From positions 26,956 through 90,955 of the IMG/VR virus record IMGVR_UViG_3300013104_000003: a stretch of DNA of 64,000 nucleotides; one strand, given 5' to 3'. Each line of letters starts with the position of its first letter. The first letter of the stretch is position 1. The notes below the pieces were generated by a model. That model did not search any database and was not told the DNA's origin. It saw only the letters and a program-made list of their open reading frames with translations. This DNA is from a virus. Its lineage: Duplodnaviria; Heunggongvirae; Uroviricota; Caudoviricetes. The translations under genes and the position numbers were made by a program. This document shows, piece by piece, positions 15,880-28,480 of this stretch.

Positions 15880-16086
15880 TTAATCCTCCAGACTATCTGT
15901 TAGAAAGAGGATTTTCTCATCTTCTTCTGTGAATGTAAAGCAGTAATCGCCTTCATCTGTGCAATCTACAGTCCAGATGTCATTAATTTTAGTTGGCTCC
16001 ATCCACACTCTGAAGCTGTAGGGTTCACCGTCTGAGTCCATAGCATAGAACCGCTGACGGTTTTTCAAATCTTTAATTTTTAGCAT
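15880..16086 (-). CDS. Hypothetical early protein
   Basis: 68-aa minus ORF. Confidence 0.45.
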   Translation of the reverse strand: MLKIKDLKNRQRFYAMDSDGEPYSFRVWMEPTKINDIWTVDCTDEGDYCFTFTEEDEKILFLTDSLED

Positions 16087-16295
16087 TATTCACCCCACCC
16101 GTTGTAGTCTGTCCAATCCTCCACTAGCACTACATAGTCTTCATAGGGCCAGAATTCTTTTATCAAGGCGTACTTATTAGTTTCATAATTCTTAATAAAG
16201 TAGTGCAAATGCCCTTCAATTTCTTGCATGTTCCAATCATTAATATTTGAGTAGCCTGTCTCTGTCATCCAAGCTTGGAACTCTTTCTTATTCAT
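16086..16295 (-). CDS. Hypothetical protein, MNKxxF..W...GY...DWN paralog family
   Basis: 69 aa. N- and C-terminal motifs are shared with 16775-17035 (DWTDYNGWGE vs DWTDFNGWAE). Confidence 0.5.
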   Translation of the reverse strand: MNKKEFQAWMTETGYSNINDWNMQEIEGHLHYFIKNYETNKYALIKEFWPYEDYVVLVEDWTDYNGWGE

Positions 16296-16566: not shown

Positions 16567-16784
16567 TTCAATTCCTCAATTACAAAATCCTTTTGGCTGT
16601 CATACAAACCCTTTCCATCAGTAAAGTAGTCACGATATGTTGTGTGCATATGTAAAGCAAAAGCGTTTTTAGCTGCCCCAATTGTAGCCCATCCACACTT
16701 TGAACCAAACTTGATAAGCTTGCCTGTAGAAACTTGTCGAATCACATACACAGATGTTACTTCAAACGCACGACTCATTTCCAA
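16563..16784 (-). CDS. Hypothetical early protein
   Basis: 73-aa minus ORF. Confidence 0.45.
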   Translation of the reverse strand: MEMSRAFEVTSVYVIRQVSTGKLIKFGSKCGWATIGAAKNAFALHMHTTYRDYFTDGKGLYDSQKDFVIEELK

Positions 16785-17035
16785 ACTCCTTCTGTTTCTT
16801 TATGAAATTTCTCAGCCCAACCATTGAAATCTGTCCAATCCTGAACAACCACTTTGTACCAATCTTGCCAAGCTGTTCCTTTTATCTCAGGTCTGTATTC
16901 AATTAAAGCAAACTTATTTGTCTTAGGATTGATTATAAAATAATAGTGACTAGAGCCAATCACCTGATAATTCCAATCCGTTGCGGTTAGATACCCCCAC
17001 AAATTGCACCATTTTGAAAACTGTTCCTTATTCAT
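16775..17035 (-). CDS. Hypothetical protein, paralog of 16086-16295
   Basis: 86 aa. Shares motifs with 16086-16295. Confidence 0.5.
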   Translation of the reverse strand: MNKEQFSKWCNLWGYLTATDWNYQVIGSSHYYFIINPKTNKFALIEYRPEIKGTAWQDWYKVVVQDWTDFNGWAEKFHKETEGVWK

Positions 17036-17613: not shown

Positions 17614-18936
17614 TTAAGCTAAGATTTTACTTTCTTGCAACACATTACCATCCTTCCAAGACATTTTCAAGGGAATTAGTGAAGTAATTCCGAATTCTTC
17701 TCGAAAAGAGTCACCCATTGCATTCTCCAGAAAGCCCACATCAGACATTTTAACCACAAAACTGTCATGAATTGGTAGAATAGGCTTCATTGCATCCACA
17801 AATTTCTCAATTACTCGCTGAGCAAGGTATGAGTCAGCATTCTGGAGAGCCAAACCGAATGAATCGTTGCGGCAATAACATGGAATGAAGTCAGGAGTCA
17901 TGCTGTAAATGTGTTCACGAACCTTTTTACCTGTGTTCAGACTCTTATCAATCACCCAACCCTGTGTCTTGAACTTTGTAATCTCTTTATTTATGGCACG
18001 ATCAGCGCTGTCGGTTGTTTTTGAATTAAACAGAATGTTAATTGACAGCTTAATCAGTTCACGATGGTCATCATTCTGCAAACGTTCTGGTAGAATATCC
18101 ATATACACATCAAGTGGAAGATTCTCCATACTGATCTGTTCCATCAGGCTTGTAATTCTGTAGTGTAGATTAGAAAAGTCGATTTCCACAACCTGCTCAC
18201 CATTGATTGTGATATCAAGACGAGCTTTAGTTTTCTTATGTTTGATCTTCAGAGCGTCTGAATGGAAGTAACGACCACCATGTTCAAAGTCTTTATTGAA
18301 GATACGAGAATATATGTTGGTCATTACATTACCTTCACCATCTCGTATATTATGCAACTCATTAATCTTATTAAGCTTCTCTACAATCTTACGTGCATTC
18401 TTGATGTTCTTATTATCTTGATAGTCAATAGCTTTACCGTATTCATTACGAAGGATGATAGTTTGAAGGCTAGCATTGTAAGCCGCAATAGCACTCTGTA
18501 CTTCTTCATCCTTAGAGCAGAATTCAGCAATGAATAGTTCTGATGGTGTAATATAAGACATGATCCTCTTTTCCTTATCTACGTGACCTTTACCCACGAA
18601 GTTCTCAATGTAACCCAAGGCTTCTAAGGTGTCAATGCATTTCAACAGTCTTTGTGTTTGGATACCACGTCTGTTGTACTTTGTCTTGTTGGTACTATGA
18701 TTACCCTTATGTCTTGAGTACAGAAGCTTCTCTTGTCTCTTAACACAAGCAATAAGGTTCATAATCACTACACCACTAAGTTCCTTATCCTCTATCTTAG
18801 TGATAGGTCTAAGCTTATTAACAACAGATGTAGATAGATTAATGTTATATGTTAATAACCTACTCTTAAGGCTATACTCTTCTACTTCTTCTATCACTAT
18901 TCCACTCCTAGTCCCTCTTCTGTTCATATGGGGCAA
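17614..18936 (-). CDS. Minimal family-A (Pol I-like) polymerase-domain protein with no exonuclease domain
   Basis: 440 aa with the Pol-A motif set in the correct order and spacing. The pre-motif-A GRYFHSD (residues 221-227) matches TGRLSSSD. Motif A DFSNLHYRI (253-261) matches DYSQIELRI. The motif-B-like RAINKEITKF (312-322) matches the O-helix R...K...F. Motif C PIHDSFVV (388-395) matches VHDE of Pol I or HDSF of T7 RNAP. Confidence 0.7.
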   Translation of the reverse strand: MPHMNRRGTRSGIVIEEVEEYSLKSRLLTYNINLSTSVVNKLRPITKIEDKELSGVVIMNLIACVKRQEKLLYSRHKGNHSTNKTKYNRRGIQTQRLLKCIDTLEALGYIENFVGKGHVDKEKRIMSYITPSELFIAEFCSKDEEVQSAIAAYNASLQTIILRNEYGKAIDYQDNKNIKNARKIVEKLNKINELHNIRDGEGNVMTNIYSRIFNKDFEHGGRYFHSDALKIKHKKTKARLDITINGEQVVEIDFSNLHYRITSLMEQISMENLPLDVYMDILPERLQNDDHRELIKLSINILFNSKTTDSADRAINKEITKFKTQGWVIDKSLNTGKKVREHIYSMTPDFIPCYCRNDSFGLALQNADSYLAQRVIEKFVDAMKPILPIHDSFVVKMSDVGFLENAMGDSFREEFGITSLIPLKMSWKDGNVLQESKILA

Positions 18937-19362: not shown

Positions 19363-19671
19363 TCATGCGATCCACTCCAGAAATATTTTCACAAAGTCTA
19401 GCACAACAAATTCGTCCCGATTTTTAGTGTAGACGTGTTCAATCAAATATACCCTTCCACTAGATTCTCCCGGCAAGCATACAATATCACCATTCAGTGG
19501 AATAACATCGCTCTGTGTGAAACAATAGAAATTTTCACTGACCATATCAGTATACATAATTTTATACATCTCTCTTCTCCCTAAATTTAATTGCACATTC
19601 TGCATGTTGCACACGAAATTTCCCGTTGTGTCTCTCGAAATGTCCAGCCCCTTTTTCACAGAAAAGACCAC
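19363..19671 (-). CDS. Hypothetical early protein
   Basis: 102-aa minus ORF. Confidence 0.45.
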   Translation of the reverse strand: MVFSVKKGLDISRDTTGNFVCNMQNVQLNLGRREMYKIMYTDMVSENFYCFTQSDVIPLNGDIVCLPGESSGRVYLIEHVYTKNRDEFVVLDFVKIFLEWIA

Positions 19672-19701
19672 AACGATAGCATATTCCGGGGTATTTGTTT
19701 C

Positions 19702-19890
19702 TCATTTTAACACAGTCTCAATAGTTACAATCTGCTTGACCTGATATCGTGTAATCCTCCAATCAGGATGCTCTTTCTCATTAGCATTTTCCCATGCTAG
19801 AACCGTTTCCCAGTCATTACACAACTTGAGTACACGCCCACCCGGATTGGAAATTTGATAAGTGATTTTTGTTTCAGTTTTCATGTCCAT
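19702..19890 (-). CDS. Hypothetical early protein (first gene of the leftward block)
   Basis: 62 aa, adjacent to the divergent control region. Confidence 0.45.
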   Translation of the reverse strand: MDMKTETKITYQISNPGGRVLKLCNDWETVLAWENANEKEHPDWRITRYQVKQIVTIETVLK

Positions 19891-19954: not shown

Positions 19955-20000
19955 TTTTCTAGAAATTTTGTTAGCACGAGGGGAGAAATTTTGCAGAGAT
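19955..20000. repeat. Direct repeats AGAAATTTTG in the divergent intergenic region
   Basis: tagaaattttgtta at about 19960-19973 and gagaaattttgcag at about 19988-20001, between the divergent early and middle blocks. Confidence 0.4.
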
Positions 20001-21598: not shown

Positions 21599-21812
21599 TT
21601 TACAATTTGAGCAATATTCCCTTGACATTCTCTACGATCTAGTTGAAGGTGATTTCTACGCCTCTGACAGACTAGATTGGGAATGTATTGGAGGTCAGTG
21701 GACAGATTCTGACGATTTAGTTCTTGACATGAGCAGTGAAGAAGTGGAGAATGAGAGTGGGCTTTTTGAGAAATACATAAATGAATTGATAAAGAAGGAG
21801 TTGTTGAAATGA
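21588..21812 (+). CDS. Small highly acidic protein
   Basis: 74 aa, D/E-rich. Confidence 0.45.
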   Translation: MLTNLQFEQYSLDILYDLVEGDFYASDRLDWECIGGQWTDSDDLVLDMSSEEVENESGLFEKYINELIKKELLK

Positions 21813-22909
21813 CACAATACAAATCAGAAATTAAAAAGCTGCAAAATCTTGTATCAGATTCTGTTTGGGAAATCCTCAAAGAATGTAATGCGATTATTGC
21901 TGGTGGTGCCATCACTTCTGTATTTTGTAATCGGGAAGTGAATGATGTGGATGTTTATCTTCGTAATGAAGATGACTTTGCACTCTTCATTGATTTGGTA
22001 TTTGAAGGCGACTTCTGTTTGATCGCCAACAACCTCACCAATCGTTCTGTACTCTTTAGAGACAAAGAGACAGGACAACATGTACAATTGATTGTTTATA
22101 AATTCTTTCAAGATATTCCAAGTCTCTTCAAAGATTACGACTTCACCTGTAATATGGGTGCGCTTGAGTTTGTTGAAAACGATCAAGGCGAAAAGCAACC
22201 TAACCTTGTACTGCACGAAAAGTTTATGAAGCATAACAGCCAACGTTATCTTGAATTCAACGAAGGAACAGCTTATCCTTTGATTAGTGCTTTGCGTGTT
22301 CAGAAGTATGTTGATAAAGGTTACATGTGCCCTAAAGCTCAGTTCCTGCGTATTCTTCTGGCAGTAAACAAGAAGAATATTGATTCTTGGGAAAAGCTTA
22401 AAGATGAAATTGGTGGTATGTATGGTCTGAACATGGATGAAATCTTTAATGAAAAGGAAGAGTTTAGTCTAGAATCTGCACTTGACACCTTGAACGAGAT
22501 TGAGTCTGATAATGCCTTTGTGACATTTGACAAGACGATTACTAAAGATATGATCCTTGATCAAATTGCCCTCAAGGGCTGTGACACATCTTCCCGTATC
22601 TCTTGTGAAGGTAAGAACTTCAAGTGGGTTCATGAAAATGAGGATGGAACTCTTGAAAGTATTTACCGGGGAGAGTTTAAATATGTAGTGGGAGAAACTG
22701 TCAACGGTGGGAAGAATGGTATTTATTTCTCGTCTGGTTGGGATATTCTGACTTCTTGTTATGCGGGAGAAGGTGGTATTATTGAACTAGAAGGTGGGCA
22801 TGCAACTAAACTTCATGGGTATTCTTGGGAAGACACCACACTGAAGGGTGATGTGAAAGTTGTTGATAAATATAGTCGAATTGAATTTATCAGGAAGTAC
22901 ACTAAATGA
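21809..22909 (+). CDS. Nucleotidyltransferase-fold (Pol-beta-like minimal NTase) protein of unknown function
   Basis: 366 aa. The N-terminal IIAGGAITSVFCNREVNDVDVYL fits the hG[GS]-x(9-13)-[DE]h[DE]h NTase signature. Confidence 0.5.
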   Translation: MTQYKSEIKKLQNLVSDSVWEILKECNAIIAGGAITSVFCNREVNDVDVYLRNEDDFALFIDLVFEGDFCLIANNLTNRSVLFRDKETGQHVQLIVYKFFQDIPSLFKDYDFTCNMGALEFVENDQGEKQPNLVLHEKFMKHNSQRYLEFNEGTAYPLISALRVQKYVDKGYMCPKAQFLRILLAVNKKNIDSWEKLKDEIGGMYGLNMDEIFNEKEEFSLESALDTLNEIESDNAFVTFDKTITKDMILDQIALKGCDTSSRISCEGKNFKWVHENEDGTLESIYRGEFKYVVGETVNGGKNGIYFSSGWDILTSCYAGEGGIIELEGGHATKLHGYSWEDTTLKGDVKVVDKYSRIEFIRKYTK

Positions 22910-25776: not shown

Positions 25777-27951
25777 GTGGCAGATTTGAAATTTATTGAA
25801 GGACAATGGATTTTTGACATTGAAACGTATCCAAACTGCTACACTTTTTGTGCTGTATATTCAAATGGTAAGGGGATTCGTACCTTTGAGATTAGTGATC
25901 GTAAAAACGAAGTAGAAGAGATGCTTGATTTTCTTCGCAAAGTAGCTACGTCCAAACACAAGTTGGTAGGTTTTAACAATGTCGGCTTTGACTATCCCGT
26001 CATTCATTACATTTTGGAGAAGTCAAAGAAAGCAAAAGTAGCCGGTAAACCTTTGGTGATTAATGCTAAAGAGATTTATGATGTAGCTATGAAACTTATT
26101 CGTAGTCAGAATGATGAGAAGTTTGGTAATGCAATTCGGGATAAAGAAGTAAAGATCCCTCAAGTTGATCTGTTTAAGATTCATCACTTCGATAACAAGG
26201 CTCGTGCCACGTCTTTGAAGATGCTTGAATTCAATATGCAGTCAGACAACATTGAGGATCTTCCTTATCCTGTTGGTACGATGTTAAAGGATCATGAGAT
26301 TGATGAACTAATTAAGTACAACAAACACGATGTCCTTCAAACATTGAAGTTCTATAAAGAATCTATTGAGGCTATTCGTTTTCGTGAGAAACTAACTGAG
26401 AAGTACGGATTTGATTGTACAAACTATAATGACACGAAGATTGGTAAACAGTATTTTATCAATCGTCTTGAAAAAGCTATGCCGGGATCTTGTTATACAA
26501 AGAATCCTCATGGTGGACGTACAATTAATCAAACGAAACGTCCTATCATTTATTTGAAAGATGCAATTCTTCCTTACATCAAGTACGAACGTGAGGAATT
26601 TAAAGCTCTTTTGAAGTGGTTTAAGACGCGGAGCATTATAGAAACAAAAGGTGTGTTCATTGATGTACTTGAAAAAGATTTGGGAGAGCTTGCTAAATAC
26701 TCTCAACTGACAACCAAGAAACGAAAGCTGAAGACCAAACCAACCGATGAGGAATTAGTAGCACTCAAGGAAGAAAACCCATTGTCTTGGGTTGAAGAAA
26801 TTGAGTTGAAAGGTAAAGAAACTAAAGCTAATGGCGGTGGTCAGAAGAAAGCCTATTGGTTGAACTGGAAAGTTGCTGAAACATTGAACGTAGTTGTTGA
26901 TGGGTTTCGCCTTGACTTCGGTACAGGCGGTATCCATGGTAGCGTAGAATCAACAATTGTTCGCTCTGATGAGGATGAAGTAATCGACGACCGAGATGTC
27001 GCCAGCTACTATCCAAATTTAGCGATCTCTAATAACGTCTATCCAAAACATCTTGGACAGAACTTTTGCCGTATCTATAAAGATGTTTATGTAGAGCGTA
27101 AATCACACCCTAAAGGTAGCCCAGAAAACGCTGTAATGAAGCTTGCTTTGAACGGGGTGTATGGTGATTCAAATAGTGAGTTTAGTCCGTTTTATGACCC
27201 ACTTTATACCATGACAATCACCATTTCGGGCCAGCTTTCACTGTGTATGTTAGTAGAGGATTTGCTGAAGGTTGAAGGTTTGAAAATGGTACAGGCTAAC
27301 ACCGATGGCATCACTTTCAAACACAAACGTTCTGATGATCCTTTGGTTGATAAAATTGTCAGTGATTGGGAAGTGACAACAAAGCTGGAGATGGAGCGTA
27401 ACGATTATTCTATGATGGCAATTCGTGACGTTAACAATTACATCGCTATCTATGAAAAAGGTGGAAGTGTAAAACGTAAAGGAGCATACGAATATGCTGA
27501 TTTGGATTGGAATAAAAACTTCTCATCGTTGGTGATTCCTAAAGCTGCTGAGCATGAGATTCTTGGACGTGGAACTGTTGAGGAATTTATTGAGAACCAT
27601 AAAGACAAATGGGACTTTATGTTGCGTACGAAAGTACCTCGTAGCTCTCGCTTGATCATGGTGATGCCTGACGGGACGGAAGTACCGCAGCAGAATATCT
27701 GCCGGTATTACCCTGCAAAAGAAGGTGGTAAGCTTGTAAAGATTATGCCAGCACTAGAAGGTAAGGAAGCTGATGGTGATCGTCGTTTGAGTATTGATAA
27801 AGAGTGGAATGTCAATACTTGTAATGATATTAAAGATTTTAAATGGGGCGTGGACTATGAATATTATATTTCTGAAGCACGTAAATTGGTTGATCCGTTA
27901 ATGGGTAAAGGTGAAGTAATTGAAAGAAGTGTGGAAACCGATTATTCTTGA
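25777..27951 (+). CDS. Family B DNA polymerase with 3'-5' exonuclease domain
   Basis: 724 aa, GTG start with RBS. Exo I is FDIETYPN, Exo II GFNNVGFDYPVI and Exo III YNKHD. Pol motif A is DVASYYPNLAI, motif B KLALNGVYGDSN and motif C QANTDGITF. Confidence 0.8.
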   Translation: MADLKFIEGQWIFDIETYPNCYTFCAVYSNGKGIRTFEISDRKNEVEEMLDFLRKVATSKHKLVGFNNVGFDYPVIHYILEKSKKAKVAGKPLVINAKEIYDVAMKLIRSQNDEKFGNAIRDKEVKIPQVDLFKIHHFDNKARATSLKMLEFNMQSDNIEDLPYPVGTMLKDHEIDELIKYNKHDVLQTLKFYKESIEAIRFREKLTEKYGFDCTNYNDTKIGKQYFINRLEKAMPGSCYTKNPHGGRTINQTKRPIIYLKDAILPYIKYEREEFKALLKWFKTRSIIETKGVFIDVLEKDLGELAKYSQLTTKKRKLKTKPTDEELVALKEENPLSWVEEIELKGKETKANGGGQKKAYWLNWKVAETLNVVVDGFRLDFGTGGIHGSVESTIVRSDEDEVIDDRDVASYYPNLAISNNVYPKHLGQNFCRIYKDVYVERKSHPKGSPENAVMKLALNGVYGDSNSEFSPFYDPLYTMTITISGQLSLCMLVEDLLKVEGLKMVQANTDGITFKHKRSDDPLVDKIVSDWEVTTKLEMERNDYSMMAIRDVNNYIAIYEKGGSVKRKGAYEYADLDWNKNFSSLVIPKAAEHEILGRGTVEEFIENHKDKWDFMLRTKVPRSSRLIMVMPDGTEVPQQNICRYYPAKEGGKLVKIMPALEGKEADGDRRLSIDKEWNVNTCNDIKDFKWGVDYEYYISEARKLVDPLMGKGEVIERSVETDYS

Positions 27952-28480
27952 TGATATTCAAGAGCGATATGCAATTAGTAATTTTGGAAAAGTGATTGAC
28001 TTGAAGAACCAAAAGTATATGAATTGGCACGACAATGGTGCTGGTTATATGACAGTTGGTCTTCAGGGACCAAAATCAAAAGTACGAGTTCGTTATGTTC
28101 ATCGTTTGATTGCTATTGCATTCCTTGATAATCCTGATAAACTACCTCAAGTTGGACACAAGGATCATACACGAGCTAACAATTTCGTTGATAATTTGTA
28201 CTGGACAACACAGAAACAAAACACGGCAGATGGTATTGAGGCTGGGCGGATTAATGCAAATCGCCCCAAGGCTAACAGAAAAGTTACAAAAGAAATTATT
28301 TGTAAGATTGCATTGTTAGAAAGTTTAGGGTATGGTGTGAACGAGATTGCAATGAAAATGGACTTTCCGCGTACAACGATTTCTAGTGTGTTCAACGGGC
28401 GGAGTAACAGCGAGTTGTTTGAGTTCGTGCGAAAAGAAATTAGAGATTCGACTTGCATACCCCAACCAAACTTGCTATAA
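27920..28480 (+). CDS. HNH homing endonuclease (NUMOD4 plus HNH_3-type)
   Basis: 186 aa with YAISNFGKV and VGHKDHTRANNFVDNLYWTTQKQN. Overlaps the 3' end of the polymerase gene. Confidence 0.75.
   Translation: MKEVWKPIILDDIQERYAISNFGKVIDLKNQKYMNWHDNGAGYMTVGLQGPKSKVRVRYVHRLIAIAFLDNPDKLPQVGHKDHTRANNFVDNLYWTTQKQNTADGIEAGRINANRPKANRKVTKEIICKIALLESLGYGVNEIAMKMDFPRTTISSVFNGRSNSELFEFVRKEIRDSTCIPQPNLL

Follow-up and report, generated by a model that had tools for sequence, protein, structure and literature searches.

A distant member of the phage divPolA2 family: a minimal family-A polymerase core with a predicted winged-helix domain

The gene considered here lies on the minus strand at 17614..18897 of a 64,000-nucleotide stretch of DNA (the window; positions 26,956 to 90,955 of IMG/VR record IMGVR_UViG_3300013104_000003) from an uncultured tailed phage of about 90 kb. 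It almost certainly codes for a member of the phage divPolA2 family, that is, a protein with a winged-helix domain, thumb-like helices and a minimal family-A palm and fingers, and with no exonuclease. An original prediction, made from the sequence alone, had seen in this gene an extra minimal family-A polymerase and had taken such an enzyme to be unexpected. This last point has to be withdrawn: a paper of 2024 already describes the family under the name divPolA2, and one of 2008 probably does so as TV-Pol, so that the window protein is a distant new addition to it rather than a discovery. What the present analysis adds is the winged helix, the size of the family, the His/Asn signature that marks its sugar-selection positions, the placement of the gene near strand switches, the early expression of a homolog and the lack of a multi-copy promoter motif.

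The gene and the predicted fold of its product

The original prediction had placed an open reading frame (ORF) at 17614..18936, and the ORF listing has it there, on the minus strand; the mechanically chosen TTG start gives a product of 440 amino acids. The likely start is GTG 18897, which gives a polymerase of 427 amino acids. This start is taken because AGGAG stands 7 nt upstream of it and because 427 amino acids is the length of the closest homologs (426-430 amino acids). Residue numbers are throughout those of the 440-amino-acid numbering from the TTG start.

The relation to PolA is detected by structure comparison only, as searches of the PDB by sequence and by profile returned no PolA match and nothing related. 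Pfam gave, at E<=10, a single sub-threshold match to the winged-helix model HTH_34 and no match to DNA_pol_A or RNA_pol, and NCBIfam gave nothing meaningful for the protein. In PHROGs it falls in phrog_4756 (E=6e-56), which has no assigned function. An AlphaFold2 model built from an alignment of 32 homologs (pLDDT 87.7, pTM 0.82) is assigned the family-A fold by Foldseek against the PDB, in agreement with the palm similarity that the original prediction had hoped to see in such a search, and the palm of the model superposes on PolA palms. No exonuclease domain or vestige of one is present in the model.

The original prediction described the protein as consisting of thumb, palm and fingers only. 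The core stands, but the "only" does not, since an N-terminal domain was missed. We assign this domain as a winged helix, an assignment made for the first time here. The winged-helix region is the fastest-diverging part of the protein between close orthologs (74% as against 91-96%), which fits a specificity domain. The parts of the gene are as follows.

17614..18897, minus strand: coding sequence of the divPolA2 / TV-Pol-like polymerase; stop codon 17614-17616, alternative starts ATG 18927 and TTG 18936
18532..18864, minus strand: N-terminal winged-helix (wHTH) domain, residues ~25-135, a putative DNA-targeting module
18322..18531, minus strand: thumb-like element, long helices 143-156 and 176-193 flanking the L162-R163 strand, from the secondary structure of the AlphaFold2 model
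18151..18321, minus strand: beta-hairpin G220-G221-R222 (R222 hairpin codon 18271-18273), followed by the motif A palm strand with E251, D253 (codon 18178-18180) and H258 (codon 18163-18165)
17788..18150, minus strand: fingers, with D276-x-Y278, O-helix 289-304 (codons of R292 18061-18063, K296 18049-18051 and N304 18025-18027) and the G361-L-x-L-Q-x-x-D368-S369 helix
17617..17787, minus strand: palm motif C hairpin L387-P-I-H390-D391-S392-F393 (D391 codon 17764-17766), with the C-terminal helix and beta-hairpin

Conservation of residues was counted over 194 family members. In the thumb-like element L162 never varies, while R163 and N189 are kept in at least 90% of them. The strands of the beta-hairpin are residues 210-214 and 220-224 in the model.

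Membership of the divPolA2 family

The founding divPolA2 protein, gp034 of the Rheinheimera phage Barba18A, matches the family hidden Markov model (HMM) over its full length with E=8.6e-33. A structure search of BFVD gave full-length matches with template modelling (TM) scores of 0.6-0.9 in proteins of Aeromonas and Rheinheimera phages. With tblastn the window protein matched 165 phage records, every one annotated as hypothetical; 114 of these are Rheinheimera phage records (all Barba phages among the matches listed) and the others come from Vibrio, Aeromonas and further aquatic phages. The family is much larger than this, as an exhaustive profile search at E<=1e-3 found at least 10,804 representatives at the 50% identity level. 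A megablast search with 10 kb around the gene gave no match in the phage collection, so the phage has no close cultured relative there.

The family was described by the Koonin group in the section "Two novel phage PolAs" of the paper 'DNA polymerase swapping in Caudoviricetes bacteriophages' (Virol J 2024; PMC11348598). In that paper divPolA2 is a diverged PolA found in 110 barbaviruses, where it is added to the regular PolB. It is described as having an active palm, no 3' exonuclease and a globular domain at the N-terminus for which no similarity could be detected; no homologous thumb was seen. Its neighbourhood is variable, some phages carry two or three paralogs, and the role proposed is that of a repair DNA polymerase (DNAP) or of an RNA polymerase (RNAP). 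The window protein agrees with this description in its length of ~430 amino acids, its active-type palm, the lack of a 3' exonuclease, the N-terminal globular domain and the co-occurrence with PolB. It differs in being distant from the Barba protein (26% identity) and in coming from an uncultured ~90-kb phage. The reading given here departs from the published one in that the N-terminal domain is now a winged helix and the helices at 143-193 are taken as a thumb of the TV-Pol type. We found no later paper characterizing divPolA2, and the PolA reclassification paper of 2023 omits the family.

Catalytic residues

The Pol I motifs named in the original prediction are found again across the family. 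The hairpin Arg (R222), the motif A Asp (D253) and the motif C Asp (D391) are each present in 194/194 members. Further motif A residues are E251 (190/194) and H258 (187/194), and the fingers hold D276 (192/194) and Y278 (all 194). One motif had been misplaced: the O-helix is not the segment RAINKEITKF, of which K317 is kept in 49/194 only, but residues 289-304, with R292 (190/194), K296 (194/194) and N304 (193/194). In motif C the original prediction read HDS as in RNA polymerases, and this reading holds for the family, with H390 in 190, S392 in 187 and F393 in 163 of the 194 members. The complete catalytic set, R222, D253, R292, K296 and D391, is present in the predicted minimal core.

The invariance of the catalytic residues argues for retained catalysis. 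It might be proposed that the protein is a catalytically dead PolA fold serving as a DNA-binding regulator, which would go with the N-terminal winged helix and with the silence of the Pfam PolA and RNAP models. Since both Asp, the RxxxK motif and the hairpin Arg are kept across 194 diverse members and more than 10,000 clusters, we regard this as very improbable.

Sugar-selection residues and the comparison with DNA and RNA polymerases

The pattern of motif A, D-[YF]-S-x-[LIM]-H-x-R compared with DYSQIELR, is of the kind found in DNA polymerases. H258 is taken to occupy the steric-gate position because it stands five residues after the motif A Asp and is in register with E480 of T7 DNAP. An hhalign comparison of the family with the single T7 DNAP sequence puts D253 and H258 in register with D475 and E480, in an alignment that covers motif A only. 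This bears out the claim of the original prediction that the steric-gate Glu of Klenow is replaced by His. The corresponding hhalign comparison with the single T7 RNAP sequence was discarded, as the alignment was spurious and the method too insensitive. While His is the rule at the steric gate, the founding Barba18A gp034 (locus L122:7863-9170; EIDYSQLWPRI) has Trp there; both residues are bulky.

Compared with the family-A DNAPs (Klenow, Taq, T7 gp5, Pol theta and the apicoplast polymerase) the window protein thus has H258 for the steric-gate Glu, N300/N304 for the Phe/Tyr of the O-helix and HDS for the HDE of motif C, and it has no exonuclease. Single-subunit RNAPs have Gly at the position that holds His or Trp here; in T7 RNAP this is G542, and the Tyr that senses the 2'-OH is Y639. 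The sugar-selection positions are therefore neither RNAP-like nor DNAP-like, with His/Trp in place of Gly or Glu and Asn in place of Tyr. By its sequence the family is predicted to have a unique, invariant His/Asn pair at the positions that decide between deoxyribonucleotides and ribonucleotides, a signature which this analysis adds to the description of the family.

These residues bear on the possibility that the enzyme is a mini single-subunit DNA-dependent RNAP, in which the winged helix would read a promoter, the core would transcribe phage genes and the paralogs would serve different gene classes. This is one of the two roles suggested in the 2024 paper. We consider it rather unlikely, though it is the chief rival of the model favoured below. 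What the window protein has in common with T7-like RNAPs (including mitochondrial RNAP, N4 vRNAP and N4 RNAPII) is the motif C HDS[F], the hairpin G-R-x-Y and a position suited for early expression. Its only PHROG match outside the family is to the T7-type RNAP family phrog_414, over 45 residues at motif C (367-411) with E=0.088. The GGR[FY]Y hairpin also resembles the T/DxxGR motif. However, T7-like RNAPs have ~800-1100 amino acids, so that the window protein with its 427 is half their size or less; its N-terminal domain is unrelated to theirs, and the T7-like N-terminal promoter-binding domain, the specificity loop and the intercalating hairpin are absent. The Gly after motif A is His (or Trp), the discriminator Tyr is Asn, and the Pfam model RNA_pol is silent.

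Relation to TV-Pol and the cellular homologs

The divPolA2 family is probably the N-domain-bearing branch of TV-Pol. This link is made here; the 2024 paper cites TV-Pol in passing without connecting it to divPolA2. TV-Pol ("transposon-virus polymerase") was defined by Iyer, Abhiman & Aravind (2008; PMC2579912) as a minimal core like that of PolA and T7 RNAP. This core has a thumb of two helices, an invariant Arg in a hairpin, a pair of catalytic Asp and fingers carrying a conserved Asp and RxxxK. The proteins have 400-600 amino acids, never occur with a nuclease and often have an extra N-terminal domain ('TV-PolN'). They are found in phages and in bacterial mobile islands beside resolvases, lambda-type integrases and transposases, and in hot spots rich in restriction-modification (R-M) genes; the mobile-island context was the basis for predicting a prim-pol function.

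The features of the TV-PolN subset recur in the window protein: a minimal nuclease-less PolA core, the hairpin Arg (R222), the two palm Asp (D253 and D391) and, in the fingers, D276 with R292/K296. The thumb is the one feature on which the descriptions part, as helices 143-156 and 176-193 are seen in our model while no homologous thumb was seen in 2024. The taxa are also shared (Rhodobacterales, Loktanella, Methylobacterium, Paracoccus and Vibrio), and so is the mobile-island context. A scan of species genomes found relatives of the window protein in Rhodobacteraceae (including Loktanella and HTCC2083), Methylobacterium, Rhizobiales, Desulfobacterales and others. Among 76 cellular loci a tyrosine integrase is a neighbour in 35, mostly directly upstream and on the same strand, and a serine resolvase in 19; genes for HsdM, type III Mod and C5-methyltransferases (C5-MTase) recur, and the neighbours were confirmed by Pfam. 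The family differs from TV-Pol in two respects: no D5-like helicase, fused or neighbouring, was seen in the loci examined, and no recombinase or transposase was found beside the phage copies. For the mini-RNAP discussed above these loci are a difficulty, as the cellular homologs stand singly, next to integrases or resolvases, on small islands that would have little use for an RNAP of their own.

Two of the cellular loci deserve mention on their own account. In Rhodobacteraceae HTCC2083 (L059) the homolog lies in an island together with a type I specificity subunit, DUF4145/DUF5655, an AbiEii-like AAA_21 ATPase and SIR2_2. In Loktanella sp. (L081) it lies with a C5-methylase and an integrase, and a second, more distant polymerase copy is found at L081:2978-4285.

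A direct comparison was made with phage Ma-LMM01, whose probable TV-Pol is gp030, lying beside two transposases; the identification is ours. The family HMMs (A1 and that of the 194 sequences) gave no significant match in positions 1-150,000 of the 162,109 bp of Ma-LMM01 (the last 12 kb left out). The direct sequence link between the two families is weak: the hhalign match to the gp030 family is marginal (E=0.0087, probability 4.6%, 83 columns), although R/D/H/K/N are all in register, and a profile search with gp030 found no sequences bridging to divPolA2.

The replication module and the rate of divergence

The original prediction rested in part on a family-B replicase at 25777-27951, which is indeed there (phrog_1252, E=3e-188, with an N-terminal PolB-exo Pfam match). 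[quoted passage not shown] The phage thus does have an extra, exonuclease-less enzyme of PolA fold, with its catalytic residues intact, beside a complete PolB. In the related phage Barba18A, too, gp034 occurs together with a PolB, gp022. Identity between the window proteins and those of Barba18A is 49% for PolB and 55% for the primase-helicase, compared with 26% for divPolA2, from which it follows that divPolA2 evolves, or is exchanged, much faster than the replisome.

The second role suggested in 2024 was that of a repair polymerase. In this explanation divPolA2 would be an exonuclease-less repair, translesion or gap-filling DNAP that extends existing primers, in recombination-dependent replication or on damaged or modified templates. 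The DNA-polymerase-like motif A with its bulky steric-gate residue, the lack of a proofreading domain alongside a proofreading PolB, and the co-expression of the Barba18A homolog with replication genes at a ~16-fold lower level are all consistent with it, and so is the behaviour of CCPol (see below), which alone is a primer-dependent DNA polymerase. Yet a winged helix of the sequence-reader type is unexpected in a lesion-bypass enzyme, no conserved repair genes are found nearby, and multiple fast-diverging paralogs together with a cellular context linked to integrases and resolvases are atypical for such an enzyme. We give this explanation little credence.

Position in the genome and time of expression

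The polymerase gene belongs to the leftward arm of a divergent region at ~19.9-20.06 kb, and the sign of the GC skew changes at ~20,000. The original prediction called it the first long gene of the early operon. In the leftward operon no long gene precedes it, but ~5-6 small ORFs do; the ORFs adjoining the polymerase gene code for short helical or acidic proteins. That the operon is early is plausible from the Barba18A homolog. In published transcriptomes the first time point is the peak for gp034 as well as for PolB and primase, with gp034 at the ~16-fold lower level already mentioned; this, with the position in the operon, indicates an early role. A promoter candidate is found in the divergent region:

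19951-19922, minus strand: sigma70-like promoter candidate, TTTGCA-18 nt-TATGAT, in the divergent intergenic region; 9/12 match, consensus only

This candidate would drive the leftward operon that holds the polymerase gene; the count of sigma70-like hits in the divergent region is not above that in shuffled sequence. Placement near a change of strand is seen also among the relatives. When ORFs of at least 100 amino acids were counted, with a control set from the same loci, the polymerase genes were found a median of 1.1 kb downstream of a coding-strand switch as against 3.6 kb for other long genes (p ~3e-7), a value which is indicative only, the loci being related.

Early position and early expression of the homolog are what a phage RNAP would show as well, and one paralog in a sister phage lies directly upstream of tail-fibre genes. 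Against an RNAP, sigma70-like promoter matches stand upstream of the operon, and the 64-kb window is without a multi-copy conserved intergenic motif of the T7 or N4 type and so without a promoter family: the largest repeat family in the window has 4 copies and is coding, and no 11-12-mer is present in more than 4 copies. The result would be compatible with promoters that are degenerate or that lie beyond the window.

Paralogs

The window itself has a single copy of the gene. Three viral contigs of ~90 kb carry two copies each that are 38-45% identical to the window protein, and one of the two-copy contigs also has a copy 98% identical to the window gene. Records of Vibrio phages show up to 3 matching places per record, and in Vibrio phages 1.121.O and HNL01 paralogs lie between structural genes.

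The contig of the sister phage (IMGVR_UViG_3300042147_000025), whose first copy is the one 98% identical to the window gene, has its second paralog, with 41% identity, at L014:7995-9242. It is separated from the first copy by ~60 kb and follows immediately on a strand switch, at a place equivalent to one outside the 64-kb window. Two HNH endonucleases, PhoH and a protease are encoded upstream of it and a tail-fibre gene follows downstream.

Family members are also found on contigs of ~4-5 kb, two cases of which were inspected (L013, 4.3 kb, and L041, 3.0 kb) as small replicons having divPolA2 as their sole replication gene. This idea was rejected, as both look like assembly fragments.

A further explanation is that divPolA2 might be a selfish or conflict polymerase, either the replicase of a mobile cassette that has invaded phages or an enzyme of early counter-defence whose product is decoy or modified nucleic acid. 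In line with such a role the 2-3 divergent paralogs have variable positions, some of them in islands between structural genes or beside HNH homing endonucleases; the family evolves much faster than the core replisome and is very large (the 10,804 representatives); and the cellular homologs occur in integration hot spots with R-M, SIR2 and AbiEii-like genes. On the other hand the phage copies have no recombinase or transposase beside them, PADLOC gave no match for the phage protein or for the cellular homologs, and no terminal repeats or cassette boundaries were identified. The idea is also too unspecific, and we hold it to be improbable.

A tentative model for the function of divPolA2

The three options that the original prediction gave for the function (a special DNA polymerase, a mini RNA polymerase or an unusual nucleotidyltransferase) are the ones that the literature, too, still considers. 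The model which we favour, though tentatively and with less than even confidence, is that divPolA2 is an accessory primase-polymerase which is targeted to DNA and begins synthesis at given sites. It would not be the replicase, because the complete module of primase-helicase, PolB and gp2.5-like SSB is present in the window. The model postulates that the divPolA2 gene is transcribed early from a host-type promoter in the divergent region, and that the winged helix would then bring the enzyme to a certain site or structure in the DNA. The minimal PolA core would start a nucleic-acid chain de novo and extend it for a short distance, with a sugar specificity presumably set by the His/Asn pair, and the 3' end would be passed to the phage PolB and the DnaG-DnaB replisome, for origin firing or for restart. 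In cells, where the gene lies next to that of an integrase or resolvase, the enzyme would replicate the mobile island once this has been excised. In favour of the model stand the invariant catalytic residues, the motif A of DNA-polymerase type, the placement of the gene near strand switches with the early expression of the homolog, and the integrase and resolvase neighbours of the cellular homologs.

The precedent for de novo priming by such a fold is the A-family polymerase CCPol of SCCmec, which together with its partner MP primes DNA de novo (Bebel et al. 2020, PMC7581432; Rice 2023, PMC10061031). CCPol-MP is the sole A-family polymerase shown to do so. CCPol differs from the window protein in being a true Pol I derivative, near the CHEAP subfamily, which keeps an exonuclease remnant, whereas the window protein is without one. 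CCPol further needs the adjacent OB-fold protein MP, and its operon also codes for a helicase. Neither is found with the window protein, which has a winged helix instead.

A number of observations weigh against the primase-polymerase model. The need for a second primase is not evident, given that the phage already encodes one of DnaG type. The presence of 2-3 divergent paralogs per genome, at variable positions and some between structural genes, is unusual for a replication initiator. No helicase, OB-fold/MP/SSB-like or other conserved partner was found, the best neighbour family being present at 7/39 loci, and neither iterons nor an origin signature was found beside the gene, where only a 10-nt repeat occurs twice, at 19961 and 19984. 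The invariant Asn replaces an O-helix Tyr that is common to DNAPs and RNAPs, so the chemistry may differ from that of both, and the motif C HDS and the hairpin GGR[FY]Y resemble T7-type RNAPs more closely than DNAPs. Finally, we found no published biochemical assay of any member of the divPolA2 branch.

A bolder form of the model makes divPolA2/TV-Pol a self-contained initiator of ~430 amino acids, which would bind duplex DNA through the winged helix, open it and start a chain de novo, each paralog having its own origin or promoter. We find this form doubtful.

Other features of the window

Upstream of the polymerase gene and in the same operon a Cys/His-rich ORF of 47 amino acids (CYRCG...C...H...H..C; 19562-19705, minus strand) may code for a zinc-ribbon. 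Downstream of the polymerase gene there are two paralogous small genes at 16086-16295 and 16775-17035 (minus strand), with the products MNKKEFQAWMTETGY... and MNKEQFSKWCNLWGY...; their DNA is 77% identical over 47 nt (repeat family D4), and the pair is a local duplication inside the block of small early genes. Closer to the replication module, at 21809-22909 (plus strand), a 366-amino-acid early-operon protein (phrog_18122, E=5e-80) has no Pfam match and a weak N-terminal nucleotidyltransferase signal (phrog_1614, E=6e-8); it would be a second nucleotidyltransferase-like enzyme in this part of the genome. An HNH/NUMOD4 homing-endonuclease-like ORF at 27920-28480 (plus strand; phrog_59, E=1e-40; Pfam NUMOD4 and HNH_3) overlaps the end of the PolB gene by 32 nt and is probably a free-standing homing endonuclease.

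Significance

The single instance described here adds little, as the family and the same questions about it were already in print in 2024 and, in substance, by 2008. The link between divPolA2 and TV-Pol joins these two literatures. The family itself is an attractive target for biochemistry, with at least 10,800 representatives and no Pfam model, and it is a minimal core of the PolA / T7-RNAP superfamily with its own predicted DNA-binding domain. To learn if its task is priming, transcription or repair would throw light on the way in which DNA and RNA polymerases diverged within this fold. If the enzyme is self-initiating, it would be a very compact polymerase for use in biotechnology. If it is a sequence-targeted initiator, it would be the smallest known primer synthase or RNA polymerase of PolA fold, with a pair of sugar-selection residues, His and Asn, found in neither DNA nor RNA polymerases.

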